Source of the DNA: a candidate division WOR-3 bacterium
GTDB lineage: Bacteria > Hydrothermota > Tepidihabitantia > SM23-42
Direction of reading: 5' to 3'
Length of the DNA: 64,000 bases
NCBI GenBank assembly: GCA_027026255.1
Contig: JALVOT010000004.1
Location: 39,061-103,060, forward strand
A program made the position numbers and the translations under genes. This document shows, piece after piece, positions 5,850-62,199 of this stretch (within the stretch, counting starts at the first letter, position 1; each line of letters begins with the position of its first letter). The notes under the pieces are model-generated. The model ran no database searches, was not told where the DNA came from, and saw only the letters and a list, made by a program, of their open reading frames with translations.

Positions 5850-8228
5850 ATGAAAAAAGGATTAATACAAGTATGGCTCCTGGGGTTTATATTAACAGGG
5901 TGTCTATATGGGGCTATTAACACCGGACCCTACCTGACTCCAGGGGATAATCCCAAGACCTCTGTCTGGGTTAACTGGAATACCACCAACGCAGCCCAGA
6001 GCAGAGTTGCTTATGGAACCAGTTCTTCTGCACTAAACGACACTGCAAGCAGTTCAGGAACAACTGAATTCCATCATGTATTACTGGATAATCTCAATCC
6101 AGGAACAGTATACTACTACAAAGTTCTCCCCAGTGGCGATGTCAAACATTTCCGAACTTTTCCCAATAGTGCTGACAGCTTCAACTTCATTGCTTTTGGC
6201 GATACCCGTGATGGTGATAATCCCCACCAGCAGATAATGAATCGAATGTGGGATTATGATTTTGTGCTTGTTACCCATTCTGGAGATTTAGTAGGTAGGG
6301 GCAATAGGTGGTCGGATTGGACCACATTCTTTGATATCGAAGATACTGTAATCAGCTATAAGCAGTTTTTACCAGCGGTGGGTAATCATGAATACCCCTA
6401 CACACAATTTGACAGTCTTTTCAAACTCCCTGAGGGAAATAATAACAACTACTATTCATTAGATTATGGAAACGCCCATTTTGTAGTCCTTAATACTCAG
6501 AGCGATATCTCGGCTGAGAGTACCTGGCTTGTAAACGACCTTCAGGCAGCAAATAACAATCCGAATATTGTCTGGAAATTTGCAAATTTTCACCGTCCAC
6601 CTTATTCGTCAGGTCCACACGGAAGTGCTTCGGATATAAGAGCAAAATGGTGTCCGGTATTAGAAGAATATGGAGTGGATATTGTTTTTAATGGTCATGA
6701 CCACGACTATGAGCGAAGTATTGATATCAATGGAACAGTCTATATTGTAACCGGTGGTGGTGGTGCACCCCTTTATAATCCGGACTCAAACTGGTGGACA
6801 GCACATGTAGAAGGCACTTATCATTTTTGTTTGATTGAAATAAGAGACGATGATCTGCTTTTGAAAGCAATCAAACGGGACGGCACTGTATTCGACACTC
6901 TGAGATTGCATAAAGCGGCACATGAACCCTGGATTACAATCACCAATACTGATATTAATGATCCATCTCCTGGTGGAAATGGCAATAACCAATTAGAACC
7001 AGGGGAAACAGCCAACCTTCTAATAACCCTGAAAAACCAGGGTGGTGTCCAAGCAACAAATACTAATGGGCTATTACGCACCAGTGATCCTTATATCACA
7101 ATAAATGATTCAACTACAACGTTCGGTAATATAGCACCTGATTCCCAGAAAACAAATAACGCGGATCCATTTAACATTACAGCATCAGATTCAACCCCAA
7201 CGGGTCATACAGTTCAATTTGAACTTATTGTTACTGCTAATGATTATAATGATACCCTTAACTTTGATATTATGGTCGGCACCAAAGATTATTATGTCTG
7301 GAACCCTGACCCTACTCCATCACCAGGACAGCAAATTGATTCAATCCTGACTGCCCTGGGATATTCTGGTGATTACGGCACATCTCTGGCATCAGATTTA
7401 ACCAAATACAAATCTGTCTTTGTATGCGTTGGAGTATACAGCAACAGTTACATGATAAGAGAGAACAGTCCTGAAGCATCAGCCCTTGCAGATTATCTCC
7501 AGAATCAGCACGGCAGGATGTATTTAGAGGGTGCTGATGTCTGGTACTGGGACCCAAACCATGGTGGTTATAATTTTAATCCGTTATTTGCCATTAATCC
7601 GACTGACGAAGGTACTAACGATATGGGTCCGGTGGTTGGCCAGTCTGGGAGATTTACTGCGGGAATGAACTTCAACTATAATGGTGAGAATAATTATATG
7701 GATCATATCTCACCTACGGGTAATGGATTTTTAATCTTTGTTGACGGTGATAATAATTATGATTGTGGTGTTGCGCATGATGCAGGGGATTATAGGACGG
7801 TTGGGACTTCATTTGAGTTAGGTGGTCTGGTGGATGGGTCTCCACCTTCAACCCGTGCTGCGCTGTTGGATTCGATAATGCATTTCTTTGGAATCTCTAT
7901 CAATCCAGGGGTTAAAGAGCAAAAAGACCTTTCAATGAAACCAGCAAAAACCCAGCTGACCCAACTCTATCCCAACCCGACAAACAGCAAAACTACGATT
8001 AAATTCCAGATTAACCATAATACTCCATTATCATTAAAAATCTATGATGCCATGGGTCGTCTGGTGCGAACGATAATAGACTCTCCCGACTGTAAACCAG
8101 GTTACTACACAGTCAAATGGGAAGGCAATGATAATAGAGGTAGAAAGGTATCAAACGGTATCTACTTCTTATCTTTCCAGACTGATACTCACAAAACACT
8201 ACGTAAGGTAATAGTCATAAAAAGGTAA
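5850..8228 (+). CDS. Secreted calcineurin-like metallophosphatase (purple acid phosphatase family) with a T9SS C-terminal sorting domain
   Basis: 792 aa. Signal peptide MKKGLIQVWLLGFILTGC. PAP N-terminal FN3-like domain (VAYGTSSSAL...GTVYYYKV). Metallophosphatase motifs GDTRDGDN, GNHE, GHDHDYER. The C-terminal roughly 80 aa (LYPNPTNSKTTIKF...NGIYFLSF...KVIVIKR) match the Por/T9SS C-terminal-domain pattern. Confidence 0.8.
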   Translation: MKKGLIQVWLLGFILTGCLYGAINTGPYLTPGDNPKTSVWVNWNTTNAAQSRVAYGTSSSALNDTASSSGTTEFHHVLLDNLNPGTVYYYKVLPSGDVKHFRTFPNSADSFNFIAFGDTRDGDNPHQQIMNRMWDYDFVLVTHSGDLVGRGNRWSDWTTFFDIEDTVISYKQFLPAVGNHEYPYTQFDSLFKLPEGNNNNYYSLDYGNAHFVVLNTQSDISAESTWLVNDLQAANNNPNIVWKFANFHRPPYSSGPHGSASDIRAKWCPVLEEYGVDIVFNGHDHDYERSIDINGTVYIVTGGGGAPLYNPDSNWWTAHVEGTYHFCLIEIRDDDLLLKAIKRDGTVFDTLRLHKAAHEPWITITNTDINDPSPGGNGNNQLEPGETANLLITLKNQGGVQATNTNGLLRTSDPYITINDSTTTFGNIAPDSQKTNNADPFNITASDSTPTGHTVQFELIVTANDYNDTLNFDIMVGTKDYYVWNPDPTPSPGQQIDSILTALGYSGDYGTSLASDLTKYKSVFVCVGVYSNSYMIRENSPEASALADYLQNQHGRMYLEGADVWYWDPNHGGYNFNPLFAINPTDEGTNDMGPVVGQSGRFTAGMNFNYNGENNYMDHISPTGNGFLIFVDGDNNYDCGVAHDAGDYRTVGTSFELGGLVDGSPPSTRAALLDSIMHFFGISINPGVKEQKDLSMKPAKTQLTQLYPNPTNSKTTIKFQINHNTPLSLKIYDAMGRLVRTIIDSPDCKPGYYTVKWEGNDNRGRKVSNGIYFLSFQTDTHKTLRKVIVIKR

Positions 8229-8925: not shown

Positions 8926-11502
8926 ATGAAAAAAGGATTAATACAAGTATGGCTCCTGGGGTTTATATTAACAGGGTATCTATATGGAGGTATTAACACC
9001 GGACCCTACCTGACTCCAGGAAGTAATCCCAGGACCTCTGTCTGGGTTAACTGGAATACCAATAACGCAGCCCAGAGCAGAGTCGCTTATGGAACCAGTT
9101 CTTCTGCACTAAACGACACTGCAAGCAGTTCAGGAACAACTGAATTTCATCATGTATTACTGGATAATCTCAATCCAGGAACAGTATACTACTACAAAGT
9201 TCTCCCCAGCGGCAATGTCAAATATTTCCGAACTTTTCCCAATAGTGCTGACAGCTTCAACTTCATTGCTTTTGGCGATACCCGTGATGGTGATAATCCC
9301 CACGAGCAGATAATGAATCGAATGTGGAGTTATGATTTTGTGCTTGTTACCCATTCTGGAGATTTGGTAGGTAGTGGCAGCAGCTGGTCAGATTGGACCA
9401 CATTCTTTAATATCGAAGATACTGTAATCAGCTATAAGCAGTTTTTACCAGCGGTGGGTAATCATGAATCCCCCTTTACACAATTTGACAGTCTTTTCAA
9501 ACTCCCTGAGGGGAGTAATAACAACTACTATTCATTAGATTATGGAAACGCCCATTTTGTAGTCCTCAATACTGAGATGAATTCGAGCGGTATCTCGGCT
9601 GAGAGTACCTGGCTTGTAAACGACCTTCAGGCAGCAAATAACAATTCGAATATTGTCTGGAAATTTGCAAATTTTCACCGTCCACCTTATTCATCAGGTC
9701 CACACGGAAGTGCTTCGGATATAAGAGCAAAATGGTGTCCGGTATTAGAAGAATATGGAGTGGATATTGTTTTTAATGGTCATGACCACCTCTATGAGCG
9801 AAGTATTGATATCAATGGAACAGTCTATATTGTAACCGGTGGTGGTGGTGCACCCCTTTATAATGGAGACTCAAGCTGGTGGACAGCATATTCAGAAGGC
9901 ACTTATCATTTTTGTTTGATTGAAATAAGAGATGATGATCTGCTTTTGAAAGCAATCAAACGGGACGGCACTGTATTTGACACCCTGAGATTGCATAAAC
10001 CAATACATGAACCCTGGATAAAGGCACTCAGCTATAATATTACTGATCCTCCACAAGGTGGAAATGGTAATGGTATATTAGAACCTGGTGAGACCGGGAA
10101 AATGGTGGTAAACATAAAAAATATTGGTGGTGCAGGTGCCTATAATACAACCGGGACCTTGGTATCCTATGATAACTATGTTACAGTGCAGAATACAACC
10201 TATAACTTTGGTGACCTGGCTCCGGGTGATACCACATCGAATTCAGGCAGTCCGTTTTCACTCGTGGTTCACGATTTAACCCCTCAGGGACATGGTGCAA
10301 AGATTGGGTTAGTGCTCCATGCGGATGGTAAAAATGATACCGTAGACTTTGATGATACACTATACTATACAATTACAATCGGCACTCCCCCAGACCCCAC
10401 AATCATCTTTGGAGACGACTTTGAATACAGTGGTGGAGTTGATAGTTTTCCACATTACTGGAATGCAACTGGAAACTGGGCGCGCTCAACCCAGAATTCC
10501 CATTCTTCAAGCCATTCTGCATATAGTGGTGCACCTCTTGATAATGCAACAACCTTAACCATGAAAAATGGAGTTGACCTGACCCCATTCAGTGACCCCC
10601 GACTCAGTTTCTGGCACCGTTATGATTTTGCTTCAGCAATGTTTATGGATGGCTGTGCAGTTCAGATCTCTACTAACGGCGGTTCTTCCTGGGGAGACCT
10701 CTGGACCTTTAACTGGAATAACGGTGAAACCATTCCCTGGACTGAATTTGCCCTGCCTCTTTCTTCCTATATCAGCAACAATGTCAAGGTTAGATTTATG
10801 ATTGACGCCAATACAATGTTCCAGGACCGTACTGATTGGTTCATCGATGATTTTATGTTATTTACTCCAACCGACAATGAGCCGCCTTATTTTACAAATA
10901 CTACGGTCTGGCCGGATACTAATTATACTGGCCCATTTCCTGTGCAGTCAAAGATTACCGATAAAAGTGGTGTCGACCAGGCAAAACTCTATTATCGGGT
11001 TAATTCAGGTTCCTGGCAGGAACTGACAATGTCAGCGGGGAGCAATAATATCTATTCAGCAAGCATTCCTGCCCAGTCCTCGGGTGATAAGATTGACTAT
11101 TATTTATGGGCCCGGGATAAGTGGCTTACTCCGAATGCGGGATGTGACCCGATTGGTGCACCGGATCGTGGATATTACTCATTCAATCTGAAGATCGGAA
11201 TCAATGAAGGTCAGGCGGGCAGAATTCAGTTTATGCCGATAATCACCAATCCTACGCGGGGTCCGGTAAAGATCAGATTCAGCATTCCGGAGAAGAATAA
11301 GGTCAATCTGGCAGTCTATGATGTAACCGGCAGAAAGGTGAAAACAATATTCAATAAAAAAATAGCCCCTGGTGAATATCAGATAACCTGGAATCGTCTT
11401 GATGAAAAACATAGGCAGATTTCTACAGGCATCTACTTCTTGAAGTTTTCTGTTCCCGATGCAAAGTATGAAAAGATAGAGAAGGTTGTTCTTTTGAAAT
11501 AG
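8926..11502 (+). CDS. Secreted calcineurin-like metallophosphatase paralog with a divergent MAM/galactose-binding-like middle region and a T9SS C-terminal sorting domain
   Basis: 858 aa. The first about 345 aa are near-identical to the 5850..8228 product and carry the same metallophosphatase motifs. It then diverges (..CAVQISTNGGSSWGDLW..). The C-terminus GPVKIRFSIPEKNKVNLAVYDVTGRKV...GIYFLKFS...KVVLLK is T9SS C-terminal-domain-like. Confidence 0.8.
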   Translation: MKKGLIQVWLLGFILTGYLYGGINTGPYLTPGSNPRTSVWVNWNTNNAAQSRVAYGTSSSALNDTASSSGTTEFHHVLLDNLNPGTVYYYKVLPSGNVKYFRTFPNSADSFNFIAFGDTRDGDNPHEQIMNRMWSYDFVLVTHSGDLVGSGSSWSDWTTFFNIEDTVISYKQFLPAVGNHESPFTQFDSLFKLPEGSNNNYYSLDYGNAHFVVLNTEMNSSGISAESTWLVNDLQAANNNSNIVWKFANFHRPPYSSGPHGSASDIRAKWCPVLEEYGVDIVFNGHDHLYERSIDINGTVYIVTGGGGAPLYNGDSSWWTAYSEGTYHFCLIEIRDDDLLLKAIKRDGTVFDTLRLHKPIHEPWIKALSYNITDPPQGGNGNGILEPGETGKMVVNIKNIGGAGAYNTTGTLVSYDNYVTVQNTTYNFGDLAPGDTTSNSGSPFSLVVHDLTPQGHGAKIGLVLHADGKNDTVDFDDTLYYTITIGTPPDPTIIFGDDFEYSGGVDSFPHYWNATGNWARSTQNSHSSSHSAYSGAPLDNATTLTMKNGVDLTPFSDPRLSFWHRYDFASAMFMDGCAVQISTNGGSSWGDLWTFNWNNGETIPWTEFALPLSSYISNNVKVRFMIDANTMFQDRTDWFIDDFMLFTPTDNEPPYFTNTTVWPDTNYTGPFPVQSKITDKSGVDQAKLYYRVNSGSWQELTMSAGSNNIYSASIPAQSSGDKIDYYLWARDKWLTPNAGCDPIGAPDRGYYSFNLKIGINEGQAGRIQFMPIITNPTRGPVKIRFSIPEKNKVNLAVYDVTGRKVKTIFNKKIAPGEYQITWNRLDEKHRQISTGIYFLKFSVPDAKYEKIEKVVLLK

Positions 11503-26831: not shown

Positions 26832-26843
26832 TTATCTACTCAG

Positions 26844-26917
26844 GGTGAGTGAGGGGACTTGAACCCCCAACCATTGGAGCCACAGTCCAATGCTCTGCCA
26901 GTTGAGCTACACTCACC
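26844..26917 (-). tRNA. tRNA-His (anticodon GTG)
   Basis: Reverse complement reads GGTGAGTGTAGCTCAACTGGCAGAGC...anticodon loop CTGTGGC...GGGGGTTCAAGTCCCC. G-1 is encoded. Confidence 0.8.
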
Positions 26918-26922
26918 ATAAA

Positions 26923-26994
26923 TACCCCGCACAGGACTTGAACCTGCAACCCACGGATTAAGAATCCGTTGCTCTACCATTGAGCTAGCGGGGC
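26923..26994 (-). tRNA. tRNA-Lys (anticodon CTT)
   Basis: Reverse complement reads GCCCCGCTAGCTCAATGGTAGAGC AACGGA-TTCTTAA-TCCGT ...GGTTCAAGTCC. Confidence 0.8.
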
Positions 26995-27007
26995 AATTTT
27001 ATTAGTC

Positions 27008-27081
27008 CGCGCCTGGAGGGAATCGAACCCCCAACCTACGGATTAGAAATCCGTTGCTCTATCCTGTTGAGCTACAGGCGC
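27008..27081 (-). tRNA. tRNA-Arg (anticodon TCT)
   Basis: Reverse complement reads GCGCCTGTAGCTCAACAGGATAGAGC AACGGA-TTTCTAA-TCCGT ...GGTTCGATTCC. Confidence 0.8.
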
Positions 27082-27171
27082 CCGCATCCGATAAAAATGG
27101 TTTATTCAGAACCAGATGATTATACCCGGTTAATTTCAATTGTCAATTAGAAATTAAATACAAATTAAAAT

Positions 27172-27696
27172 TTAATCGGCAGTGATTTTTATCGCCGACT
27201 TGTATCCATCGACATTCACATAAAATATTTCAACCTTTGCGACGCGATTGTGCATCCATACAATAACCGAACCTTCCAGTCGTTTTCGCGTAAATCGGGG
27301 TCTGATACGTTCATAGGAAAATCGTCGGCGAGGCGTAATAAAAATTGCTGGTCGGCGTAATCTCCGGGGAATCCTTCGCCAGTTTAAAACTGCCTTACTG
27401 CGCGAAAGGGGATTTTTATGGCCGAAAACATTATCGTACCTCCCTTTCTCCCAGATTTTTTCCAGTTGATGATTAAGATATTTTGGGTTGTATCTCCGTT
27501 TCCATCTATGTTTAACATCAAAATTGGGCAGGTAATAAAAAAGGTCGGTCGAGAGATTATGCACCATCGCTTTTAGACTTGCTTCATCAGCCCTTTTTTT
27601 TGCACTTACAAGATTAACTGTTGCGATTGAACTTAATATTGATATTATTACAAGCACTACCAGCATTTCAACCATTGAAAATCCTTCAGTCTTCAT
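27172..27696 (-). CDS. Prepilin-type (type IV pilin/pseudopilin) protein with N-terminal cleavage/methylation motif
   Basis: 174 aa. KTEGFSMVEMLVVLVIISIL is the class III signal G|FS(M)xE followed by a hydrophobic helix. The C-terminal half is unusually Arg/Lys-rich. Its start overlaps the upstream gene by 4 nt. Confidence 0.65.
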   Translation of the reverse strand: MKTEGFSMVEMLVVLVIISILSSIATVNLVSAKKRADEASLKAMVHNLSTDLFYYLPNFDVKHRWKRRYNPKYLNHQLEKIWEKGRYDNVFGHKNPLSRSKAVLNWRRIPRRLRRPAIFITPRRRFSYERIRPRFTRKRLEGSVIVWMHNRVAKVEIFYVNVDGYKSAIKITAD

Positions 27697-28199
27697 TTTA
27701 TCACCTCCGCCAGGGAATCTTTTAACGATATTTTTAATTGTTTAAAACCATGTTTTTCAGGATTCGGACAGAAAATAATCGTATCATTACCACTAATTTC
27801 GATTTTATATGCCAATCCACTAACCGGACAAACAAATGTATCACCGGGTGATTCACCTTTTTTTAACAATTCTTTAATTTCCTCGAGATTCGCCATACAA
27901 AGCACCGCATCTTTATCCACAGTCGGTTCCTTAAATGTCTCTTCTTTAAAAATAAATAATCTTGAAAGAATAAATAAATTGTATGCAATAATACCAATAC
28001 ATACAGCAAGTATTAACCATTTAAAGATTGAAGGAAAACGGTGCTTCCTGGATTTTGCCGGGGTGACAGTGGCATCAGGCGCTTTTTCCATTTTTTCTTC
28101 TGCCATTTCTATCTGACACCTGGAACAGTAATCTCCGGAATGTTCTTCGTCAAATAACTGGCCACATCTGAGACATCTTTTTTTTGTATTTTCACTCAT
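27693..28199 (-). CDS. Zinc-ribbon single-pass membrane protein (hypothetical, operon partner of the ATPase)
   Basis: 168 aa. N-terminal CLRCG...CSRCQ zinc ribbon, one TM helix (FKWLILAVCIGIIAYNLFIL), and an extracytoplasmic domain with CPVSG...FCPNPEKHG. It overlaps the ATPase gene by 8 nt. Confidence 0.45.
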   Translation of the reverse strand: MSENTKKRCLRCGQLFDEEHSGDYCSRCQIEMAEEKMEKAPDATVTPAKSRKHRFPSIFKWLILAVCIGIIAYNLFILSRLFIFKEETFKEPTVDKDAVLCMANLEEIKELLKKGESPGDTFVCPVSGLAYKIEISGNDTIIFCPNPEKHGFKQLKISLKDSLAEVIK

Positions 28200-30759
28200 T
28201 ATTACCTCCCTTCCCGAGTAATCTGGATATCTTTAAAAGTAGTAATTGCTTTTTTATCGGCTTTTTGATATAGTCTACAGCGCCAAGTTCTAATCCCTTA
28301 ATCTCATCTTCTGCCTCGGTTCTTGCCGTTAAAAATACAACCGGAACATCTATACCTTTTTGCTTAATAATCTCTAAGAGTTTAAACCCATCAAGATTCG
28401 GCATATTGACATCCGATATAACCAGGTCGAATTTTTTACTGCCAATTTGCATAAGGGCATCAACTCCATCCTCAACATAGGTGATATCATAGTTATTCTT
28501 CTTTAATATCTGCTTCAACAATAGTCCAATCTCCGGGTCATCATCAACGATAAGGATTGAGGGAGCCGTTGTTTTTTCTTCTTTTGCAGCCTTTTTTGAT
28601 TCTTCTTTTTTTAATGAAACAGACTTCATATCTTCAGCCAGAACAGCCTTGTAAACATCTTCCGGACTGAATATCAGGTTTTGCACCTTCTCAACCGCAT
28701 GATTACTGATTAAATAGTGTCCTTTTTTTCGAATTAATTCTCTTATTTCCGCAATGGGTGTGCCCTGTCGAACCATTTCGGTAATTTCGTAGTCGAATTT
28801 CAAGATTTCATAAATTCCTTCACGTCCTTTATAACCGCTATTATTACAGCGTGGACAACCCACGGGTTTTGCAACCTTTGTAATTTCTTTATCAACAAAT
28901 GGCCGCAGTATCTTCAAATCATAGTCCGAAGGTTCGGTTATCTTTTTGCAGAAGGGACAGAGTTTTTTTACCAGACGTTGGGCGATGATACAAATAAGTG
29001 CTTCCGCCATTACCTCCCGCGTAATACCGAGTCTTTCAAGACGGAATATTGCGGTCGTTGTATTTGAAGTATGGAGAGTAGAAATTGTTAGGTGACCGGT
29101 GCTTGAAAAATTCATAGCCATTTTTGCCGAATATTGGTCCCTGATTTCACCGAGGAAAATTATATCCGGGTCCTGACGCACAACAGATTTTAACAACGCC
29201 TCAAATGTTACTCCCGCCTTTTCATTTACCTGTTGTTGATTGGCAAACGGGATGCGGTATTCTACAGGGTCTTCAATTGAAACAAGACTGCGTGATCTGC
29301 AATCAACCTGGGAAAGAAGACTGTAAATCGTAGTAGTTTTACCGGAACCGGTTGGTCCGACGATAAGAATTAAGCCATGGCTGCGGTTAATAATATCAAG
29401 TAAGATTTCCACCTGTTCGGATGTCATCCCGAGTTCTCCAAGAGATTTTGGCTTTGCATGGGGTTCCAACAATCTGATAATAAGACTCTCCCCTTCCGGA
29501 GTGGATGTCGTCGCAAGTCGCAGTTTGAATATCCTTTTGTTAATAACCGCCTCCAATGTGCCGTCTTGAGGTCGTCTCTTTTCTGTAATATCCATATCGG
29601 CTAAAACCTTTAATCTATTTATCAACATCAAACCTGTTCTCTTTTTTAAAGTAAACATTTCGTGCATATCACCATCGACACGGAATCGCACAACCGTTTC
29701 ATTTTTTTTGGGCTCGATGTGAATATCACTTGCCCTTTCGGAAACAGCGGTAATCAAAATATTATTGGCGATATGCATTACTGGATATTTCGTGATGTCA
29801 GCCGTACTTAAGTCAGTTTTAATTGTTTTTGTCGCTTCAATACCGCTTGTTTTATCCGGGTCGCTACGGACGGCCACTTCTGCAATCTCCTCCGCGGTTT
29901 CATCAGACATACCTGACCTGAGAAAAGCATCAATAACCTCAGGACTTGTGATTTTTAAACAGGGTCTGTTTTCAGCACTGCTCCCTAATCTGGTTAAAAG
30001 ATCCACCAATTCAACATCGAAAGGATTACAAATAATATAACAGATTTTGTCTTTCTCATCTATCACCGGAAGAACATAATTCGCCCGGCAGAAGGCAGGA
30101 GGCAAAACATCCAATTCTATTAAATTATGGTCTATATAACTTATAAAGGGAAGATGCGTGAAATCAGCAAGATATTGAGCTAATTGTTTAGTCGTAATAT
30201 CAATTTTCTTACAGATGGAATAAATATTATGGATTGAAGCCTTTCCCACCAGATACTGCTGATTATCATCAAGCTTCAACTGATTAATAAGAAATTTCTT
30301 AAATTTAACAAAATCCGGAATTTCTGATTTAATCTCCCTGCTCGGCTTGCGCTCTTCTATTTTCTGCCACCGGCTTTTTGTTTTTATATAGGAATCAATT
30401 TTTTTAATCAGCTCTTCCCGATTTATTGGTTTAATCAGATAATCGACACCCCCGGAAGAAAAAATCCTTTCCCTGTTCTGTTCCTGGTCAAATGCCGTTA
30501 TAAAAATTACCGGGATGTAAGCGAAATGCTGGTCTGCCTGTAATTTTCTACATACCTCATAACCATTCATACCGGGCATTGATACATCGAGGAGTATTAA
30601 ATCCGGTTTACTGTTTTTTAGAATTGTGAATGTTTCCAGACCATCTGCAGCAGAAATTACATCATAACCATTTTTCCTTAAAATATGTTCAATTAAATTT
30701 CGCGTATCCGGGTCATCATCAACAACCATTATTAGAGGCGGTGAATTATTCATATACAA
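28192..30759 (-). CDS. GspE/PilB-family type II secretion / type IV pilus ATPase flanked by N-terminal and C-terminal response-regulator receiver domains (REC-GspE_N-ATPase-REC)
   Basis: 855 aa. N-terminal REC is VVDDDPD...LILLDVSMPGMNG...VIFITA...YLIKP, with all conserved Asp/Thr/Lys positions present. The middle has a GSPII_E N-terminal-like domain and the ATPase core: Walker A GPTGSGKTTT, Asp/His boxes, and the tetracysteine CPFCK...CPRC. C-terminal REC is ILIVDDDPE...DLVISDVNMPNLDG...VVFLTA...YIKKP. Confidence 0.8.
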   Translation of the reverse strand: MYMNNSPPLIMVVDDDPDTRNLIEHILRKNGYDVISAADGLETFTILKNSKPDLILLDVSMPGMNGYEVCRKLQADQHFAYIPVIFITAFDQEQNRERIFSSGGVDYLIKPINREELIKKIDSYIKTKSRWQKIEERKPSREIKSEIPDFVKFKKFLINQLKLDDNQQYLVGKASIHNIYSICKKIDITTKQLAQYLADFTHLPFISYIDHNLIELDVLPPAFCRANYVLPVIDEKDKICYIICNPFDVELVDLLTRLGSSAENRPCLKITSPEVIDAFLRSGMSDETAEEIAEVAVRSDPDKTSGIEATKTIKTDLSTADITKYPVMHIANNILITAVSERASDIHIEPKKNETVVRFRVDGDMHEMFTLKKRTGLMLINRLKVLADMDITEKRRPQDGTLEAVINKRIFKLRLATTSTPEGESLIIRLLEPHAKPKSLGELGMTSEQVEILLDIINRSHGLILIVGPTGSGKTTTIYSLLSQVDCRSRSLVSIEDPVEYRIPFANQQQVNEKAGVTFEALLKSVVRQDPDIIFLGEIRDQYSAKMAMNFSSTGHLTISTLHTSNTTTAIFRLERLGITREVMAEALICIIAQRLVKKLCPFCKKITEPSDYDLKILRPFVDKEITKVAKPVGCPRCNNSGYKGREGIYEILKFDYEITEMVRQGTPIAEIRELIRKKGHYLISNHAVEKVQNLIFSPEDVYKAVLAEDMKSVSLKKEESKKAAKEEKTTAPSILIVDDDPEIGLLLKQILKKNNYDITYVEDGVDALMQIGSKKFDLVISDVNMPNLDGFKLLEIIKQKGIDVPVVFLTARTEAEDEIKGLELGAVDYIKKPIKKQLLLLKISRLLGKGGNNE

Positions 30760-31063
30760 TCTGCAGCCTATCCAAATAATTTTTCAGTTCTTCAAGCATA
30801 CTTATAATCTGCTCAGCATTTCTATCTTTGGCAGCAAGTTCAATGGTTTTTCCTATTTCAGTGATTTTTTCAAATCCGTATCCCCCTCCAGAACCTTTCA
30901 TACCATGTCCGAGTCGTTCAATTATAACATATTCACCATTTTGAAGCGCCGAACGTATAGTCTCTATATCTGTATATCTCTTTTCAATATAACCAGGAAT
31001 TAATTCTTTCAGGTCGGCATCGATGTGAACAACAATTTTTTCTTCATCTGCCATTCTTATCAC
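30746..31063 (-). CDS. Stand-alone histidine phosphotransfer (Hpt) domain protein
   Basis: 105 aa. LGHGMKGSGGGYGF matches the HxxKG...G phosphohistidine helix signature of Hpt domains. It overlaps the kinase gene upstream by 20 nt and the ATPase gene downstream by 14 nt. Confidence 0.7.
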   Translation of the reverse strand: MIRMADEEKIVVHIDADLKELIPGYIEKRYTDIETIRSALQNGEYVIIERLGHGMKGSGGGYGFEKITEIGKTIELAAKDRNAEQIISMLEELKNYLDRLQIVYE

Positions 31064-33536
31064 CTCCTATAAATTTTGCTATCTCATTCAATAAAACTTT
31101 TTTCTTGATTGGCTTGGTAAGATGGGCGTCACATCCTGCTTTAATGCTTTTTTCCATCTCTTCTTTCAATGCATAGGCAGAAAGGGCAATAATCGGTGTA
31201 TGCCCTGTTCCATTCTCTTTTTCAAATTTACGTATTTCTTTTGTTGCAGTATATCCATCCATTACCGGCATCTGCACATCCATAAGCACCAAATCGTATG
31301 ATTTCTGCTTAAACTTTTCTACTGCTATAGCACCGTTTTCTGCAAAATCAAGATTAATAGGCATTCCTTTCAGGTATGCCTTAATCAAAAAACGATTGTC
31401 TTCAGTATCTTCAACCACAAGTAAATTTGATGATTTTTTAATCCGGGGAGCGGAAGCAGATGTCGACGGCTGCATTGTTTTAAATACCACAACCTTACCC
31501 AGGGCAAGTTCAATTGCTCTTTTTAAATCGTTCTTTTTAATAGGTTTAACTAAATAACTCGCAATATTCATTTCCTGACAGCGCTGAATATCACCCTTTC
31601 TCCGATCTGAAGTGAGCATCATTATCGTCGTAGTCTTTAACTCAGGATATTTTTTTATTTCACGCGCAACATCAAATCCACCCATTCCAGGCATCCGGCA
31701 ATCAAGAATAACAAAATCATAATTCTCCGATTTTTTACTGGCACGCAATAAAGAGGCAATCGCCTTTTCACCACTTTCAGCTTCACTTACAGAGACGCCC
31801 CAATTCGATAAAATATCTTTCAGTATAAGTCGATTTGTTGCATTATCATCAACCACCAGAGCCTTCATACCTTTAAGATTAACCTCTGACAGCACCTCAG
31901 GCTCTTTTACCTTCGGCGCAATCTGAAATTGAGCCGTGAAATAGAATGTACTCCCTTTGTTCACCTCACTTTCAACCCAGATTCTGCCTTCCATTAATTC
32001 AACAAGTTGCTTTGAGATTGCCAGGCCGAGTCCGGTGCCGCCATATTTTCTTGTGTGAGAAGAATCTGCCTGGGTAAAACTTTCAAATATCTTATCCTTT
32101 GTATCGTTGGGAATACCAATTCCGGTATCTCTGACGGCAAACTTAATAATTACAGTATTCCCCTCTGTCATCTCTTTTTTTACCTCTACAACAACCTCTC
32201 CCTGTTCGGTAAATTTAATTGCGTTTCCCACTAAATTTACCAGAATCTGTCGGAGTCTAACCGGGTCTCCAATTAAATGTGTCGGGACATCCGGGGTGAT
32301 ATGGCATGCCAGCTCCAGATTTTTCTTATGGGCGCGTATCGCCATTATCTCACAGGTGCGGTCCAGAAGGTCATTCAAATCAAATTCAATCTTTTCGAGT
32401 TCTATCTGTCCGGCTTCAATCTTCGATATATCAAGAATGTCGTTAATAATATTCAAAAGATTTTCGCCGGCATTCTTAAATATCTGCACATAGTATCGCT
32501 GTTCATCATTGAGTGGAGTCTCGGCGAGCAATTCAGCCATACCAACAATTGCATTCATCGGTGTTCTTATTTCATGACTCATACTGGCAAGAAATTCTGA
32601 TTTTGATTTTGAAGCAAGAAGGGCTTGTTGACGCGCCTTTATCAACTCATCTTCCATCTTTTTTCTTTCCGTAATATCGTGGAATATCGCCCGGGTAGTA
32701 TAAAATTTGCCGTCTTTGAATCGTGCATTTACATTCCCCTCCACAAAAATCTGCTTGCCATTCTTGCTTACAAATATAGTTTCCACATTGTCCATTCTTT
32801 CTCCCTGCAAAACGCGCTGGAAGACCTGTCGACAATGTTTACGATGTTTAGGATGTATAATATCAAAGATACATATTTCTTTAGCCTCTTCCCTTGTATA
32901 TCCCAGCACTTCTGACCATCTTTTGTTCACATAAATAAACTTACCCTCGGCATCAACTATCTGTATTAAATCGGTCGCATTTTCGAATAAATCGCGATAC
33001 CTTTCTTCACTTTCAACGAGTGATTCTTGAATCTCTTTTCTCCGGGAAATTTCCTGCTCAAGTTCTTTCCTGGTCAATTGCAATTCTTGATTTCTCTTTT
33101 TAAAGATTTCCGTAATGCGGGCCGCATCCTGAAGTGAAATTTTTGCCTCTTCCTCAGACATCAAAAAATCAGCCAGTTTATCAGTCATCGTCACCTCGGG
33201 GAATGCCAGTAACAGAAATCCCGATTCTATTTTCAGCCATCGGCCGCGCAAAAGAATTTTTTTATCATTGACCTTAAAGACTACATTACAGGTAGTATTG
33301 ATTAACTCCGGCAATTTGTGAAAAGGCAGTTCCTTTTTCTCGATATATATTTTGAGAACTTCCTTAATATTTTTTCCGGGGATATACTTATGGTATCTGA
33401 GAAAAGAGTTGCTTGCCCACACCACAGAAAATTGTCGGTCAACCTCCAGGATAAAAGGGACAAGAAAAGAAAGCGATGAAAGTTCGATTTCAACTTTTCT
33501 GTCTTGCTTCATAAAAATTTTCCCTCCATTATGCAA
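31044..33536 (-). CDS. Soluble hybrid sensor histidine kinase (N-terminal domain of unknown function, coiled coil, PAS, HisKA, HATPase_c, REC, REC)
   Basis: 830 aa. PAS ([30 protein letters not shown]), H-box [11 protein letters not shown], and G-boxes DTGIGIP / [11 protein letters not shown]. Two receivers follow: [11 protein letters not shown]...[11 protein letters not shown]...LTS...YLVKP and [11 protein letters not shown]...[11 protein letters not shown]...LSA...HLTKP. No TM segment is evident. Confidence 0.85.
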
Positions 33537-33832
33537 TCCGGGTCATTTTTACTTATAGCGGTTTTTCCGACCGATTCAAAATGTGTCCTGTAATATTTCC
33601 TTAAAGTGTTGTAGTTCATAAACTTACCATATTTAATCATTACTCTGTCTATCGGTTTTTTTGTCACCTTGACGACGGCATTAATTAAATCTACCCCTAT
33701 CTTATCCGAACAATCAAGGCCTCTTGCAAAGAAACCTTCTTTGCAACCACCCGGTTCACAAATCGCTTCACCAGATTCTATCTTTATCATCTCTTCAATA
33801 CCCTCATCAATGTTCCCTTTCATAATATTCAC
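33509..33832 (-). CDS. Hypothetical small Cys-containing protein, first gene of the phosphorelay operon
   Basis: 107 aa. Contains CEPGGCKEGFFARGLDCSDK. Its 3' end overlaps the kinase start by 28 nt. No recognisable motif. Confidence 0.35.
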   Translation of the reverse strand: MNIMKGNIDEGIEEMIKIESGEAICEPGGCKEGFFARGLDCSDKIGVDLINAVVKVTKKPIDRVMIKYGKFMNYNTLRKYYRTHFESVGKTAISKNDPDCIMEGKFL

Positions 33833-33938
33833 CTTCTTTTTTCAACTATTTTTATTCCCTGGTTCAATTAAATAACATTTTTTAAAATATTATAGCAAAT
33901 TATAATAAAAATTTTGCTTTTGTCAAGGTAAGTCTTTC

Positions 33939-34247: not shown

Positions 34248-34455
34248 CAAAAGTCTTTCTTCAAAAAACATCCTGCACAGGCAGTTTCTGAATTCCCTGT
34301 GTTTTATCCCGGAGAAAAATCTCAAATATGTATTATTATCTCATTCTATACACCTGTAATGAATTTCTGATTGTGCTGTATCGGGATTTAATCATATTTT
34401 GTGGAAATAAAAAAGGGACGGGCATAACCCGTCCCTTTAATTATTCTAATCAGTG

Positions 34456-35232
34456 TTATTTTGTTACCAGCCAGCGCAGACCGGCAATTCTTTGATAGGC
34501 GACTGTAATACTTACCGTAGAACCGTTGATGCTTTCGATCTTTAATTTACCAAAATGGTCATTATCTTTATCCCAGCCATCATGGTCCTGGTCCATAAAC
34601 AGGTAGTATACCGCATTTGATGCAAGGGTGGTAACCGTGCTATAATTACCCGGAGCATCAGCAATAGCGACGCTATCAAAATCGGTAACTTTAGCATCCA
34701 ACCCCATATTCTTTTCATCATTGTAGACCGGACTATATGCATTTGGGGAGGCTAATGTCATTGTCTGATAATTTTTGTCGTCAAAGACATAGTCGATATC
34801 AGGATTTGCGTCTTTTGCTGAAATCCCATAGGCTGTGCCACTTGAGTTGAACGCCAGACCACTGGGATGGGTGGTATCTGGATCATTTAGTCCGTACACG
34901 GTGAGATTTTTTGTAGTAACCGGTGTGCAATCAATTGGTTCGGTTGAACTTTCATTATCACCGGCATAGGCAGAAACTCCATAGGTTGCTGCCGGCTGGG
35001 TTGCGTCATAGGTGGTTACTGACGGGTCATCGATTGTATCAATAACAACTCCATCAGCATAGATATAATAACCATCGGCATCAGAAATCTCTATCCAGCT
35101 TATTCTTAAAGTTGCACCATTATCAGTTACAGTATAGGTCACTGATGGGGTTTCAAGTGTTACTTCCCCTTCACAACCCACCAGGATTAAAAGGGCTGCT
35201 ATGGAAACTGTTAAGGTTAATAGTCTCTTCAT
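34456..35232 (-). CDS. Hypothetical lipoprotein
   Basis: 258 aa. Lipoprotein signal MKRLLTLTVSIAALLILVGC. Thr/Asp-rich, probably beta-rich, extracytoplasmic. Confidence 0.5.
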   Translation of the reverse strand: MKRLLTLTVSIAALLILVGCEGEVTLETPSVTYTVTDNGATLRISWIEISDADGYYIYADGVVIDTIDDPSVTTYDATQPAATYGVSAYAGDNESSTEPIDCTPVTTKNLTVYGLNDPDTTHPSGLAFNSSGTAYGISAKDANPDIDYVFDDKNYQTMTLASPNAYSPVYNDEKNMGLDAKVTDFDSVAIADAPGNYSTVTTLASNAVYYLFMDQDHDGWDKDNDHFGKLKIESINGSTVSITVAYQRIAGLRWLVTK

Positions 35233-47505: not shown

Positions 47506-49884
47506 ATGAAAAGGGCACGCGAGTTAAAACCCGCGGAATTGCGTTGGCAATGCAATCCAAAATTACTAAAATTCAGGTATATCAAGGATGTTGAGGCCTG
47601 TGAATGGATTATTGGTCAGCCCCGGGCTATTGAGGCAATAAAATTAGGGCTCAGGGTTAAATATCCTGGCTACAATATCTTCATTACCGGACCGGTTGGA
47701 ACCGGCCGAACAACAACAATCACCCGTCTGCTTGAAGAATTTAAGGTCAAGAGTAAATTAAAGGACCTTTTATATGTCAATAACTTCAAGAATCCTGATA
47801 TGCCCCGATTGATTGAATTACCTGGGGGCAGCGGTAAAAAATTCCAGGTTGCAATGGATAAACTGGTGGATGGGTTGAAGGCACATATCCCGGAAATATT
47901 CCAGAGTGAAGAGTATCAGAATCGAAGAAAGAGAATTCTGGATAAGTATGGTCAACAGCATCAAACCCTTCTAAACCATTTTGAAAAAGAGGTTGAAAAC
48001 CAGGGCTTCAAACTTGTGCAGATTCAGATGGGACCGTTTGTCCGACCGGCAATTCTGCCCATTATTAATGGAAAACCGAGAAATCAGGAGGAGATTGAAA
48101 ATTTAATCAAAGAAGGCAAACTGACAAAGCAGGAATTTGAAAAGATTAAGAAAAAAATCCGTGATTTAGAAGCTGATATGGCAAAGATATATACTCAGGT
48201 TCGGGAAATCCAGGAATCGGCGAATGAAGAACTGGAAAAGTTGAATGAATGGATGGTCAAACCTGTTGTTACCCATCTGATCAACGACTTAAAGAAAAAA
48301 TTTCCTGAGCCCAGGGCCCAGCAGTATCTTGATGATGTGCTTGATGCCATTATAAAAAATCTTGGACGGTTTCTGAAAAAAGATACAAAGGATGAATTCC
48401 GCGAATTTAAGGTAAATGTCATTGTTGACAATTCAGAAACCGATGGTGCACCGGTAATCTTTGAAACCACCCCTTCCTACAAAAATCTCTTCGGCACTAT
48501 TGAACGCCGTCCGGTAGGACCGGGTGTCTATGCAAGTGATTTTCTCAATATCAAGGCGGGTTCCCTGCTTCGTGCTAATGGTGGATATCTTGTGCTGAAT
48601 GCACTTGACGCCCTGAGTGAACCCGGGGTATGGCAAACCCTGAAACGGACCCTGCGTAATGGTCTCATTGACATTCAATCATTTGACCCCTTCTATATTT
48701 TAACTACTACTGCAATGAAGCCGGAACCGATTACGATCAATGTCAAGGTTGTAATGATCGGTTCTCATTGGCTGTACTATTTACTCTTTTATAAAGATGA
48801 AGATTTTAAAAAGATTTTCAAGGTAAAGGCAGATTTTGATACGGTGATGGAGAATAATACTCAGAATATTAATCAATATGCTTCCTTCATAAAATCGATC
48901 TGTGAGCGGGAATCCCTGTGTCCGCTGAGCAAGGAAGCCGTCGCCGATGTGATTGAATACAGCGTAAGGATTGCAGGAACCAAGGATAAACTTTCAACCC
49001 GATTTAATGTAATCGCTGATCTGGTGCGTGAAGCTGATTACCAGGCGCGACAGAGGAATAAAAAACAGATTGGCCCCATCGAGGTTGAAAAGGCGATTGA
49101 ATCAAGACGAAGAAGATTGAATATGATTGAGGACAAGATTCAGGAGATGATGGAAAAGAATATCCTGATGATCAGCACCAGGGGTAAGGCGGTCGGTCAG
49201 TTGAATGGACTTTCGGTCTATCAGGTGAGCGGATATGCTTTTGGCAGACCGATCAGGATAACTGCCAAGACTGCAATGGGCCGGGCCGGCATTATCAATA
49301 TTGAGCGTGAGGCAAATCTTGGAGGCAGAACATACAATAAGGGTGTTCTGATTCTGAGCGGATTTTTAAAATCCCGCTATGCCCAGAACCAGCCGATGTC
49401 TATTGATGCAACCCTGGGATTTGAGCAGTCATACAGTGAGGTGGATGGAGATTCTGCATCCAGTGCCGAAGTCTATGCAATCCTCTCTTCTTTATCCGGG
49501 GTGCCTTTGAATCAGGAGATTGCAGTCACCGGTTCGGTCAATCAGAATGGAGAGATTCAGGCGATCGGTGGAGTGAATGAAAAGATTGAAGGGTTTTATG
49601 AAGTCTGCAAGGCAAAGGGGCTGACCGGTAAACAGGGCGTTATCATTCCTGAAGCCAATGTTTCCAATCTGATGCTTAAACAGGAGATTGTTGATATGGT
49701 TGCCAAAGGTAAATTCCATATTTATGCGGTGAAGACGATTGACCAGGGCATTGAGATACTGACCGGTATGAAGGCAGGAAAACGAACCAGGACAGGCTTT
49801 GAAAAGGGCAGTATAAATTATCTTGTGGAAAAGAAACTGCAGGAATACGCATCAAAGATGAAAGGTTTTGCCCGGACAAAATAG
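47506..49884 (+). CDS. Lon-like ATP-dependent protease (LonB/LonC-type: AAA+ with large insertion plus S16 proteolytic domain)
   Basis: 792 aa. Walker A ITGPVGTGRTTT. The C-terminal S16 domain has the DGDSASSAEVYAILSSLSG Ser region and a downstream Lys. Confidence 0.75.
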   Translation: MKRARELKPAELRWQCNPKLLKFRYIKDVEACEWIIGQPRAIEAIKLGLRVKYPGYNIFITGPVGTGRTTTITRLLEEFKVKSKLKDLLYVNNFKNPDMPRLIELPGGSGKKFQVAMDKLVDGLKAHIPEIFQSEEYQNRRKRILDKYGQQHQTLLNHFEKEVENQGFKLVQIQMGPFVRPAILPIINGKPRNQEEIENLIKEGKLTKQEFEKIKKKIRDLEADMAKIYTQVREIQESANEELEKLNEWMVKPVVTHLINDLKKKFPEPRAQQYLDDVLDAIIKNLGRFLKKDTKDEFREFKVNVIVDNSETDGAPVIFETTPSYKNLFGTIERRPVGPGVYASDFLNIKAGSLLRANGGYLVLNALDALSEPGVWQTLKRTLRNGLIDIQSFDPFYILTTTAMKPEPITINVKVVMIGSHWLYYLLFYKDEDFKKIFKVKADFDTVMENNTQNINQYASFIKSICERESLCPLSKEAVADVIEYSVRIAGTKDKLSTRFNVIADLVREADYQARQRNKKQIGPIEVEKAIESRRRRLNMIEDKIQEMMEKNILMISTRGKAVGQLNGLSVYQVSGYAFGRPIRITAKTAMGRAGIINIEREANLGGRTYNKGVLILSGFLKSRYAQNQPMSIDATLGFEQSYSEVDGDSASSAEVYAILSSLSGVPLNQEIAVTGSVNQNGEIQAIGGVNEKIEGFYEVCKAKGLTGKQGVIIPEANVSNLMLKQEIVDMVAKGKFHIYAVKTIDQGIEILTGMKAGKRTRTGFEKGSINYLVEKKLQEYASKMKGFARTK

Positions 49885-60882: not shown

Positions 60883-62199
60883 TCACTTTATATCATATTC
60901 TTTTATCTTCGCCCTGAGGGTGTTGCGGTGGATGCCAAGAATCTTTGCTGCCTCGGATAGATTCCACCCGGTCTTTTCTAAAATCTTTTTAATATGGACC
61001 TTCTCCATCTCAGCAAGTGAACCGGATTCTTCTTCAGTATGCCATTCAAGGGGAATCTCTTTTATTGTAATATAGTCTCCCGGGCAGAGGACAACCGCAC
61101 GCTCTATTACATTCTCCAGCTCTCTGATATTCCCGGGCCAATCATAACGAACCAGTCTCTTAAGGGCGTCAGGGGTGATACCCTTAATCTCTTTATGACT
61201 GCGCTGAGAGAATTTTTTTAAGAAGTATTCAGCAAGGACTGGAATATCCTCACGCCTCTGGCGCAGCGGTGGAATATTGATATTGATTACATTGAGACGA
61301 TAATAAAGGTCTTCACGAAACTTTCCCCGGGCAATCTTCTTTTTTAAATCCTGATTCGTTGCACTGATAAGCCGAACATTTACCTTTATGGGGGTATTGG
61401 AACCGAGCCTTTCAAATGTGAATTCCTGTAATACCCTTAACAACTTCACCTGGGTGCTCAGGGGCAGGTCGCCAATCTCATCAAGAAACAGGGTGCCCTG
61501 ATGGGCGAGTTCAAATTTGCCGTAGCGCCTTTTTTCCGCTCCGGTAAAGGCACCCTTCTCATAACCAAAGAGTTCACTCTCAAGCAGGGTCTCGGGCAGT
61601 GCGGCACAGGAGATAGGAACAAATTGACGGTCCTTTCTTGGACTCATTTGATGAATTAATCTTGCAATCATCTCCTTACCGGTTCCTGATTCACCAAGGA
61701 TTAAAACCGCAGCATCAGATTTTGCAACACGATTTACAATCTTGAGTATCTCTTTCATCTTTTTACTCTGAGCAATAAATGAATCAGTCGGAAAGATTTC
61801 TTTTATTTCATCCCTTAAAAGATTTAATTCCTGATGAAGCCCCTTCTCTTCATTGATACGGGCAATAATAATTTCCAATTCATCAAGATTGATCGGTTTA
61901 TTAAGATAATCATAAGCACCGATTTTCATCGCCTGAACCGCTGATTCGACGGTTCCGTAACCGGTCAGGATTATAAAATATGTCATTGGGTCAATCTTTT
62001 TCATTTGTGCCATTGTTTCCACACCATCAAGTTCGGGCATCTTCAGGTCGAGTATCACCAGGTCAAATGTGTTATGTTTGTTTAACTCAATCGCATCCCT
62101 GCCTGACCCTGCGGTCTTTACACTATGCCCCTGTTTTTGTAAAAATCCTGCTAAGAGATTGCGCTGGGCTGGTTCGTCATCGACAACCAGGATGTTCAT
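60883..62199 (-). CDS. Sigma-54-dependent response regulator (NtrC family: REC, AAA+, HTH)
   Basis: 438 aa. REC ILVVDDEP...LVILDLKMPELDG. AAA+ GESGTGKE with the GAFTGA sigma-54 contact motif. C-terminal Fis-type HTH. Confidence 0.85.
   Translation of the reverse strand: MNILVVDDEPAQRNLLAGFLQKQGHSVKTAGSGRDAIELNKHNTFDLVILDLKMPELDGVETMAQMKKIDPMTYFIILTGYGTVESAVQAMKIGAYDYLNKPINLDELEIIIARINEEKGLHQELNLLRDEIKEIFPTDSFIAQSKKMKEILKIVNRVAKSDAAVLILGESGTGKEMIARLIHQMSPRKDRQFVPISCAALPETLLESELFGYEKGAFTGAEKRRYGKFELAHQGTLFLDEIGDLPLSTQVKLLRVLQEFTFERLGSNTPIKVNVRLISATNQDLKKKIARGKFREDLYYRLNVININIPPLRQRREDIPVLAEYFLKKFSQRSHKEIKGITPDALKRLVRYDWPGNIRELENVIERAVVLCPGDYITIKEIPLEWHTEEESGSLAEMEKVHIKKILEKTGWNLSEAAKILGIHRNTLRAKIKEYDIK

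Follow-up and report, generated by a model that had tools for sequence, protein, structure and literature searches.

We analyzed a 64,000-nucleotide window of the genome of a candidate division WOR-3 bacterium (GenBank assembly GCA_027026255.1, contig JALVOT010000004.1, positions 39,061 to 103,060 of the forward strand) and observed that its minus strand holds an 855-codon open reading frame (ORF) at 28192..30759, in which a GspE/PilB-type ATPase carries a receiver domain at each terminus. Coordinates count from the first letter of the window. The plus-strand reading of the same interval was dropped, its translation being full of stop codons. Translation likely starts at the ATG at 30753, giving a product of 853 residues, because the family consensus begins at this Met (the third codon) and the ATG overlaps the stop codon of the Hpt (histidine phosphotransfer) gene. 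Unless stated otherwise, residues are numbered on the 853-residue product. Its features, taken from Pfam, alignments and a structural model, are the following.

28192..30753, minus strand: entire gene (853 amino acids plus stop), receiver / helical arm and N1E-like domain / GspE-PilB ATPase / receiver
30397..30732, minus strand: REC1, the N-terminal receiver, residues 8-119, with D12, D13, D56, T86 and K108; predicted local distance difference test (pLDDT) about 80-92 in the model
29917..30318, minus strand: four-helix arm (about residues 146-199) and N1E-like domain (weak Pfam MshEN match), lacking the RLGxxLLxxG...Q motifs that bind cyclic di-GMP (c-di-GMP)
28675..29787, minus strand: ATPase core (N2E and CTE) with Walker A GPTGSGKT, Asp box SIEDPVEY, Walker B DPDIIFLGEIRD, His box and CPFC...CPRC tetracysteine
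28213..28560, minus strand: REC2, the C-terminal receiver, residues 732-847, with D737, D738, D781, T809 and K831

The initial annotation had described two intact receivers capping a GspE/PilB ATPase, and Pfam confirmed this with two Response_reg matches, MshEN and T2SSE. It gave no strand, and every motif that it quoted is present in the minus-strand translation (LILLDVSMPG, IFITA and YLIKP; GPTGSGKTTT and CPFCK...CPRC; DLVISDVNMP, VVFLTA and YIKKP). In 855-residue numbering, Response_reg was found twice (E 4.1e-62, 207.7 bits; first copy at 10-121) and T2SSE spans residues 325-695 (E 1.9e-110, 369.4 bits against a cutoff of 24.9). The MshEN match is weak (residues 209-281, 2.4e-7) and covers the N1E-like part only. 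The Pfam matches are far beyond chance. An alignment to CheY had been proposed as a check on the receivers, and it recovered the full catalytic quintet in both: D12, D13, D57, T87 and K109 of E. coli CheY, together with the aromatic Y106, are in register in REC1 and REC2. The Asp residues in the phospho-acceptor position are D56 (REC1) and D781 (REC2), the conserved Lys residues are K108 and K831, and both domains qualify as CheY-like receivers by PF00072 and the conserved quintet.

A sequence search of solved structures matched the core to V. cholerae GspE/EpsE, M. xanthus PilB, T. thermophilus PilF and Geobacter PilB at 252-283 bits. In the same search REC1 best resembled receivers of the PleD/RpaA/MtrA type and REC2 those of the PmrA/PhoP/RstA type. 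We built an AlphaFold2 monomer model from 82 sequences (mean pLDDT 79.8), which resolves REC1 (residues 7-134), the four-helix arm (148-199), an N1E-like alpha/beta domain (219-279), a disordered linker (282-322), N2E (324-430), the ATPase domain with its zinc module (445-695), a long helix (697-719), a second disordered linker (712-728) and REC2 (732-847). With Foldseek, the core superposes on crystal and cryo-electron microscopy (cryo-EM) structures of PilF, PilB and GspE at a target template modeling score (TM-score) of 0.8-0.89, and PilT structures match it at just 20-24% identity. None of the solved structures that Foldseek matched has a fused receiver.

Family assignment and distribution

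The ATPase has the hallmarks of the GspE/PilB type: a PF00437 score above the gathering threshold, Walker A and B motifs, an Asp box and a His box. The CPFC...CPRC tetracysteine and, in the model, the N1E/N2E arrangement place it in the extension subclass, and it falls outside the PilT/PilU retraction class (TIGR01420, 150.8 bits against a cutoff of 319.1). The nearest NCBIfam model is GspE (TIGR02533, 408 bits; equivalog cutoff 630.25), with PilB (TIGR02538, 378.5 bits; equivalog cutoff 675.65) and TfpB (365.5 bits; cutoff 850) behind it. Because all of these scores fall under the equivalog cutoffs, we class the protein, from its sequence, as an extension-type ATPase of a separate subfamily and not as a GspE/PilB orthologue in NCBI's sense. 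It has in common with GspE/PilB ATPases the N2E and CTE core, the Walker motifs, the Asp and His boxes, the tetracysteine zinc site, an N1E-like domain and a flexible linker that leads into the core, with target TM-scores of up to 0.89 for T. thermophilus PilF and Geobacter PilB. It differs from them in having a receiver at each terminus, in lacking the MshEN_N c-di-GMP motifs and in being encoded with a phosphorelay instead of platform or alignment genes. The tandem 24-residue MshEN motif, RLGxx(L/V/I)(L/V/I)xxG(L/V/I)(L/V/I)xxxxLxxxLxxQ as defined in PMC5013675 and PMC10333796, was found in none of 120 family members, and c-di-GMP sensing by the N-domain was rejected on this ground.

A word-indexed search returned at least 120 clusters (90% identity) with the same architecture, at 97-100% query coverage, 49-58% identity and lengths of 829-891 residues. 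All 120 listed clusters carry both T2SSE and Response_reg. The occurrence of this architecture in so many independent clusters at such coverage, together with an identical protein on two contigs, led us to reject a chimeric or misassembled ORF or a fusion artefact. We then counted conserved positions in an alignment of the 120 listed full-length relatives. The quintet positions of REC1 are kept in 117 (D), 116 (D), 120 (D), 120 (T/S) and 120 (K) of them, and those of REC2 in 120 (E/D), 119 (D), 118 (D), 120 (T/S) and 120 (K); the Lys-Pro pair is invariant in both receivers. The Walker A Lys, the Walker B/Glu, the Asp box and the His box are invariant or nearly so, and all four Cys of the tetracysteine are kept throughout (120/120). 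Since quintets and catalytic motifs are near-invariant, it appears that both receivers have been kept able to accept phosphate and the ATPase to act as an enzyme.

Among 50%-identity representatives, searched with an exhaustive library, 15 of the best matches span both receivers in one stretch and about three dozen are of full-length size. A scan of species-representative genomes gave 80 loci, of which about 21 hold true full-length relatives; one of the back-translated patterns used (MPGMNGYE) is a generic receiver motif. These loci all come from metagenome-assembled genomes (MAGs) with about eight phylum-level labels (Syntrophorhabdaceae, other Desulfobacterota, Chloroflexota/Dehalococcoidia, Omnitrophota, Nitrospirales, Gemmatimonadetes, Fermentibacterota, Elusimicrobia and Planctomycetia). 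The nearest relative lies in a candidate division WOR-3 MAG (locus L082), where the ATPase is 58% identical and the gene order is the same.

The 50%-identity library also contains related architectures, each confirmed with Pfam. A receiver at the N-terminus only (REC-MshEN-T2SSE) is found in P0166, P0173 and P0192, a receiver at the C-terminus only (MshEN-T2SSE-REC) in P0172, P0234 and P0240, and three C-terminal receivers after MshEN-T2SSE in P0197. In P0138 an Hpt domain is fused directly before REC1 (Hpt 143-216, REC 227-338), giving Hpt-REC-...-REC. The REC-MshEN-T2SSE form was catalogued, without experiments, by Wang et al. 2016 (PMC5013675, Suppl. Table 4), for example as Geobacter metallireducens Gmet_3473. 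Like the protein studied here, Gmet_3473 has an N-terminal receiver preceding a GspE/PilB-type ATPase; the C-terminal receiver is an addition, and the dual form is not in the 2016 table. That catalogue also treats the N-domain as a c-di-GMP receptor, whereas the motif is missing here.

The initial annotation knew of no characterized case of the arrangement, and stated that finding it both widespread and annotated would count against its proposal. The first half of this turned out to be so, with at least 120 clusters; full-text literature searching found no study of any receiver-fused PilB or GspE, and the names given to the family all come from pipelines ('response regulator', 'PilB', 'GspE...', 'Flp pilus assembly complex ATPase component TadA'). 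The doubly capped form is thus widespread, pipeline-named and experimentally unexplored, and the single-receiver architecture was already catalogued in 2016.

The operon and its pilin-like genes

The ATPase gene belongs to a run of six ORFs in the same direction whose start and stop codons overlap. It is the fourth of them, and the order is H-NOX remnant, hybrid histidine kinase, Hpt, ATPase, zinc-ribbon/transmembrane/pilin-fold protein and prepilin. The features around the ATPase gene are the following.

34412-34438: terminator-like hairpin with a 12-bp stem, closing the gene upstream of the operon
33899..33926, minus strand: sigma-70-type promoter-like site TTGACA-16-TATAAT, 12/12 matches, about 75 nt upstream of the first operon gene
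33509..33823, minus strand: H-NOX remnant, 104 amino acids from ATG 33823; Pfam HNOB 28.9 bits, profile positions 9-92 of 163
31044..33512, minus strand: hybrid histidine kinase with HNOBA-like N-terminus, PAS, HisKA, HATPase_c and two receivers (Pfam)
30746..31063, minus strand: stand-alone Hpt, 102-105 amino acids; Pfam Hpt 30.8 bits against a cutoff of 24.6, His in HGMKGSGGGYG (HxxKG)
27693..28199, minus strand: partner protein of 168 amino acids: zinc ribbon on the cytoplasmic side (CxxC...CxxC), a single transmembrane helix, and a Cys-rich pilin-fold domain in the periplasm (CPxSGxxY...CPNPxxH)
27172..27696, minus strand: prepilin-like protein of 174 amino acids with class III signal EG|FSMVEML; Pfam N_methyl 27.0 bits (cutoff 21.2), TIGR02532 28.6 bits (cutoff 16.3)

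A hybrid kinase followed by Hpt lies immediately upstream of the ATPase in most of the 21 full-length loci, and the kinase-Hpt-ATPase order recurs in six of six further Pfam-annotated relatives. The sensor domains of the kinase vary among those relatives (H-NOX partner (HNOBA), CHASE-GAF-PAS, dCache-HAMP, dCache-PAS-GAF and REC-PAS), and the Fermentibacterota loci encode the Hpt as a fusion with the kinase. This conserved kinase-Hpt-ATPase operon, absent from the initial annotation, is the strongest evidence for function. In the window itself, alignment to CheY showed that both kinase receivers keep an intact acceptor Asp.

The first gene of the operon no longer encodes a heme sensor of the H-NOX type. 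A global alignment with the intact 180-residue H-NOX of the WOR-3 relative (L082:6984-7523) shows one clean 72-residue in-frame internal deletion, with both ends aligning, which removes the proximal heme-ligating His and the YxSxR motif. The gene retains a Shine-Dalgarno sequence and its stop overlaps the kinase start as ATGA; given this overlap and the single clean in-frame deletion, we rejected a frameshift or pseudogene split of an H-NOX-kinase fusion. Within residues 1-290, the N-terminus of the kinase is 32% identical to that of the WOR-3 kinase, which itself scores with HNOBA (31.7 bits). A PAS domain at residues 178-290 is present in the kinase of the window and missing from the WOR-3 kinase; it may be a sensor replacement accompanying the loss of the heme domain. 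The locus resembles NO-responsive phosphorelays of the H-NOX/HnoK type in that the WOR-3 relative has an intact H-NOX gene, an HNOBA kinase and an Hpt. It differs from them in its output, a pilus-type ATPase instead of c-di-GMP enzymes or transcription factors, and in that the H-NOX of the window is without its heme-binding half.

Downstream of the ATPase lie two pilin-like genes. The 174-residue product satisfies the definition of a type IV prepilin (class III signal, G|FxxxE); its C-terminal half lacks Cys and is extremely rich in basic residues (RRLRRPAIFITPRRRFSYERIRPRFTRKR). At 55% identity to its WOR-3 counterpart it is unusually conserved for a pilin. The 168-residue partner has no prepilin cleavage motif and is, judged from its sequence, a pilin-fold protein that stays anchored in the membrane, with its zinc ribbon in the cytoplasm. 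Its family carries no family annotation, and a single-sequence search with it returned itself only. A profile built from locus-derived homologues found 13 relatives, three of which have an N-terminal Hpt domain (P0129, P0131 and P0133); Hpt is also fused to the zinc-ribbon/transmembrane protein in loci L001 (1017-1823) and L084 (7969-8787). The His of the fused Hpt is replaced by Asn in P0129, P0133 and the L084 copy. The zinc-ribbon/transmembrane gene followed by a GFT(L/I)IEL prepilin lies downstream in eight loci (L002, L006, L014, L019, L020, L082, L086 and L087), and the two genes occur in another order in L008 and L084. The periplasmic CPxSGxxY...CP motif of the partner family also occurs in the globular part of the neighboring prepilins in L084, L086 and L087.

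Two further observations concern the flanks of the operon. The gene closed by the terminator-like hairpin at 34412-34438 is a 258-residue lipoprotein-like ORF (34456-35232, minus strand) with a signal peptide ending in ...LVGC and no Pfam or NCBIfam family match. Directly downstream of the operon lies a cluster of tRNA-Arg(tct), tRNA-Lys(ctt) and tRNA-His(gtg) genes (27008-27146 and 26843-26995, minus strand), which has its own promoter with 12/12 matches to the sigma-70 consensus at 27146-27119.

Proposed phosphorylation control of the motor

We propose, with a probability of roughly 0.6, that a multistep phosphorelay directly gates an extension-type type IV filament motor, with phosphorylation as the switch in place of c-di-GMP or a separate adaptor protein. 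The ATPase would be the terminal acceptor of the relay encoded in the same operon, with phosphate passing from the kinase His to a kinase receiver Asp, then to the Hpt His and finally to Asp56 and/or Asp781 of the ATPase. The kinase-Hpt-ATPase linkage, the Hpt fusions, the intact acceptor sites and the replacement of the c-di-GMP sensor by a receiver together suggest such a His-Asp-His-Asp relay ending on the motor. REC1 sits on the N-terminal regulatory arm, at the position of the c-di-GMP sensor in MshE-type ATPases, and REC2 is suspended from the C-terminal domain by the long helix. Phosphorylation may then alter receiver-receiver or receiver-core contacts and so control the assembly, closure and cycling of the ring (or its docking), which would set the timing of polymerization of the co-encoded prepilin. 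A probable role of the zinc-ribbon/transmembrane/pilin-fold protein is to anchor the motor, or the relay, in the membrane. We infer the phosphotransfer, the receiver that it targets and the filament machine that is served; the linkage to the kinase and Hpt is genomic.

In three known systems, PixG/PixH, DrdR and PilG/PilH of Pseudomonas, the type IV pilus extension motor is linked to the phosphorylation of receivers. Phosphorylated PixG of Synechocystis binds PilB1 (PMC11181946), and DrdR of Xanthomonas, a tandem-receiver protein, interacts with PilB and PilT, whose ATPase activity it stimulates (PMC13507683). The regulators of these systems are separate polypeptides fed by CheA-type kinases, whereas the receivers described here are covalently part of the motor and would be served by a hybrid kinase and Hpt. 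One receiver of DrdR is a pseudo-receiver, while both are canonical in the dual-receiver ATPase. By analogy with the trans-acting receivers PixG~P and DrdR we favor positive gating, either activation or relief of autoinhibition. A more distant analogy is offered by the AAA+ proteins. In NtrC, NtrC1 and DctD a receiver is fused to an AAA+ ring ATPase, and phosphorylation controls ring assembly or activity. The analogy goes no further, as these are sigma-54 activators with one receiver and a transcriptional output, and the present ATPase belongs to the RecA-like PilT/GspE superfamily. Receivers of the OmpR/PhoB family dimerize on phosphorylation. As the nearest structural relatives of REC2 are receivers of this family, a pairing of C-terminal receivers around the ring is conceivable.

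Several observations weigh against direct gating of a filament motor by the relay. The ATPase scores under the GspE and PilB equivalog cutoffs, as given above. Genes for a platform protein (PilC/GspF), PilM/N/O, a secretin or a prepilin peptidase were found neither in the 64-kb window nor within 10 kb of the ATPase in six relatives, so the filament role rests on homology and the two pilin-like neighbors, and these neighbors are missing downstream in several lineages. Structure prediction of the monomer, which the initial annotation had proposed, resolved the domain segments, but with a predicted TM-score (pTM) of 0.51 the packing between domains is unreadable, and receiver docking cannot be read from the model. 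The lack of nearby machinery genes and the subthreshold scores would also fit an ATPase that is no filament motor at all, being a signaling output with another substrate, or an ORF that arose by assembly or gene fusion. We regard this as very improbable: an artefact is excluded by the recurrence of the protein described above, the prepilin and the pilin-fold protein are predicted from the operon to be co-transcribed with the ATPase, and every extension-ATPase motif is retained, the zinc tetracysteine included.

Direct gating leaves room for different roles of the two receivers. One receiver might signal to the motor, with the other acting as a phosphate sink or competitor that makes the signal sharper or ends it, or being served by a second donor in an AND/OR gate. 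Two-input or phosphorylation-dependent clamping of the hexameric motor had been suggested in the initial annotation, and the AND/OR gate corresponds to its two-input idea. The single-receiver families of both kinds imply that each receiver can work alone, and REC1 and REC2 resemble different receiver subfamilies (PleD/RpaA-like and PmrA/PhoP/RstA-like). Sink or antagonist receivers are established for PixH and proposed for PilH, the kinase itself bears two receivers, and some loci (L001 and L084) encode a soluble Hpt domain as well as a second one that is part of the membrane protein. The window, however, has one Hpt and one kinase, and the second donor would often be dead, because the His is replaced by Asn in P0129, P0133 and the L084 copy. 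The equal conservation of the two quintets does not separate their roles. We consider such a division of labor possible but somewhat unlikely.

The receivers might also govern localization or docking instead of catalysis. Phosphorylation would then bring the motor to a machine or a cell pole, or free it from there, and the zinc-ribbon membrane protein could be the link. At least part of the action of PilG/PilH and PixG lies in recruiting PilB to the pole, and the N-terminal arm of GspE is the docking site for GspL, as in PDB 4pht, which was matched here by both sequence and Foldseek. The conserved bitopic zinc-ribbon partner is encoded next door and bears an Hpt-like domain in relatives, but its gene is absent in several lineages. 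Localization control is not exclusive with catalytic gating, and as a replacement for it we find it quite improbable.

A broader version of the gating proposal is that the operon encodes a self-contained, phosphorylation-gated minimal type IV filament module. The zinc-ribbon/transmembrane/pilin-fold protein would replace the adaptor/platform contact and couple the motor to a dedicated pilin, and the receivers would integrate a soluble Hpt and a membrane-anchored Hpt that is kept in some relatives, the whole being ancestrally driven by NO/O2 through H-NOX. We consider this version unlikely; if true, the pilus motor would contain a logic gate with two inputs.

It is not settled how two-component signals are passed on to type IV pilus motors. 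PilG/PilH, PixG and DrdR influence PilB by contacts and mechanisms that are unclear. A 2024 review of PilB regulation describes trans regulators only and states that an interaction of PilG/PilH with PilB is so far unreported. A natural fusion of receivers to a motor, encoded with its own kinase and Hpt, could serve as a 'Rosetta stone' for biochemistry and cryo-EM of a phosphorylated receiver on a PilB-type hexamer. If gating by the relay holds, direct phosphorylation would join c-di-GMP (MshEN) and adaptor proteins (PilZ/FimX) as a mode of motor gating. Members of the family are plentiful in uncultured lineages of anaerobes (Desulfobacterota, WOR-3, Omnitrophota, Fermentibacterota and others), in which pili matter for attachment, syntrophy and electron transfer.

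Other genes in the window

Two minus-strand clusters, at 41-47 kb and 56-64 kb, were at one point suspected of encoding pilus or type II secretion machinery. This was rejected, as their genes are for queuosine, a glycosyltransferase, ScpB, CTP synthase, Lpt proteins and an NtrC-type regulator. The NtrC-type gene (60883-62199, minus strand; REC/sigma-54 activator/HTH_8) adjoins a gene for a 386-residue protein with a weak bactofilin match (62204-63364, minus strand). On the plus strand, 5850-8228 and 8926-11502 encode large paralogous proteins with purple-acid-phosphatase N and metallophosphoesterase domains, each with a C-terminal sorting domain of the type IX secretion system. Because the window encodes sorting domains of this type and Lpt proteins, the source cell would be diderm. 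At 47506-49884 (plus strand) lies a gene for a LonB/LonC-like AAA protease of 792 residues, with LonB AAA, LonC helical and Lon_C domains.

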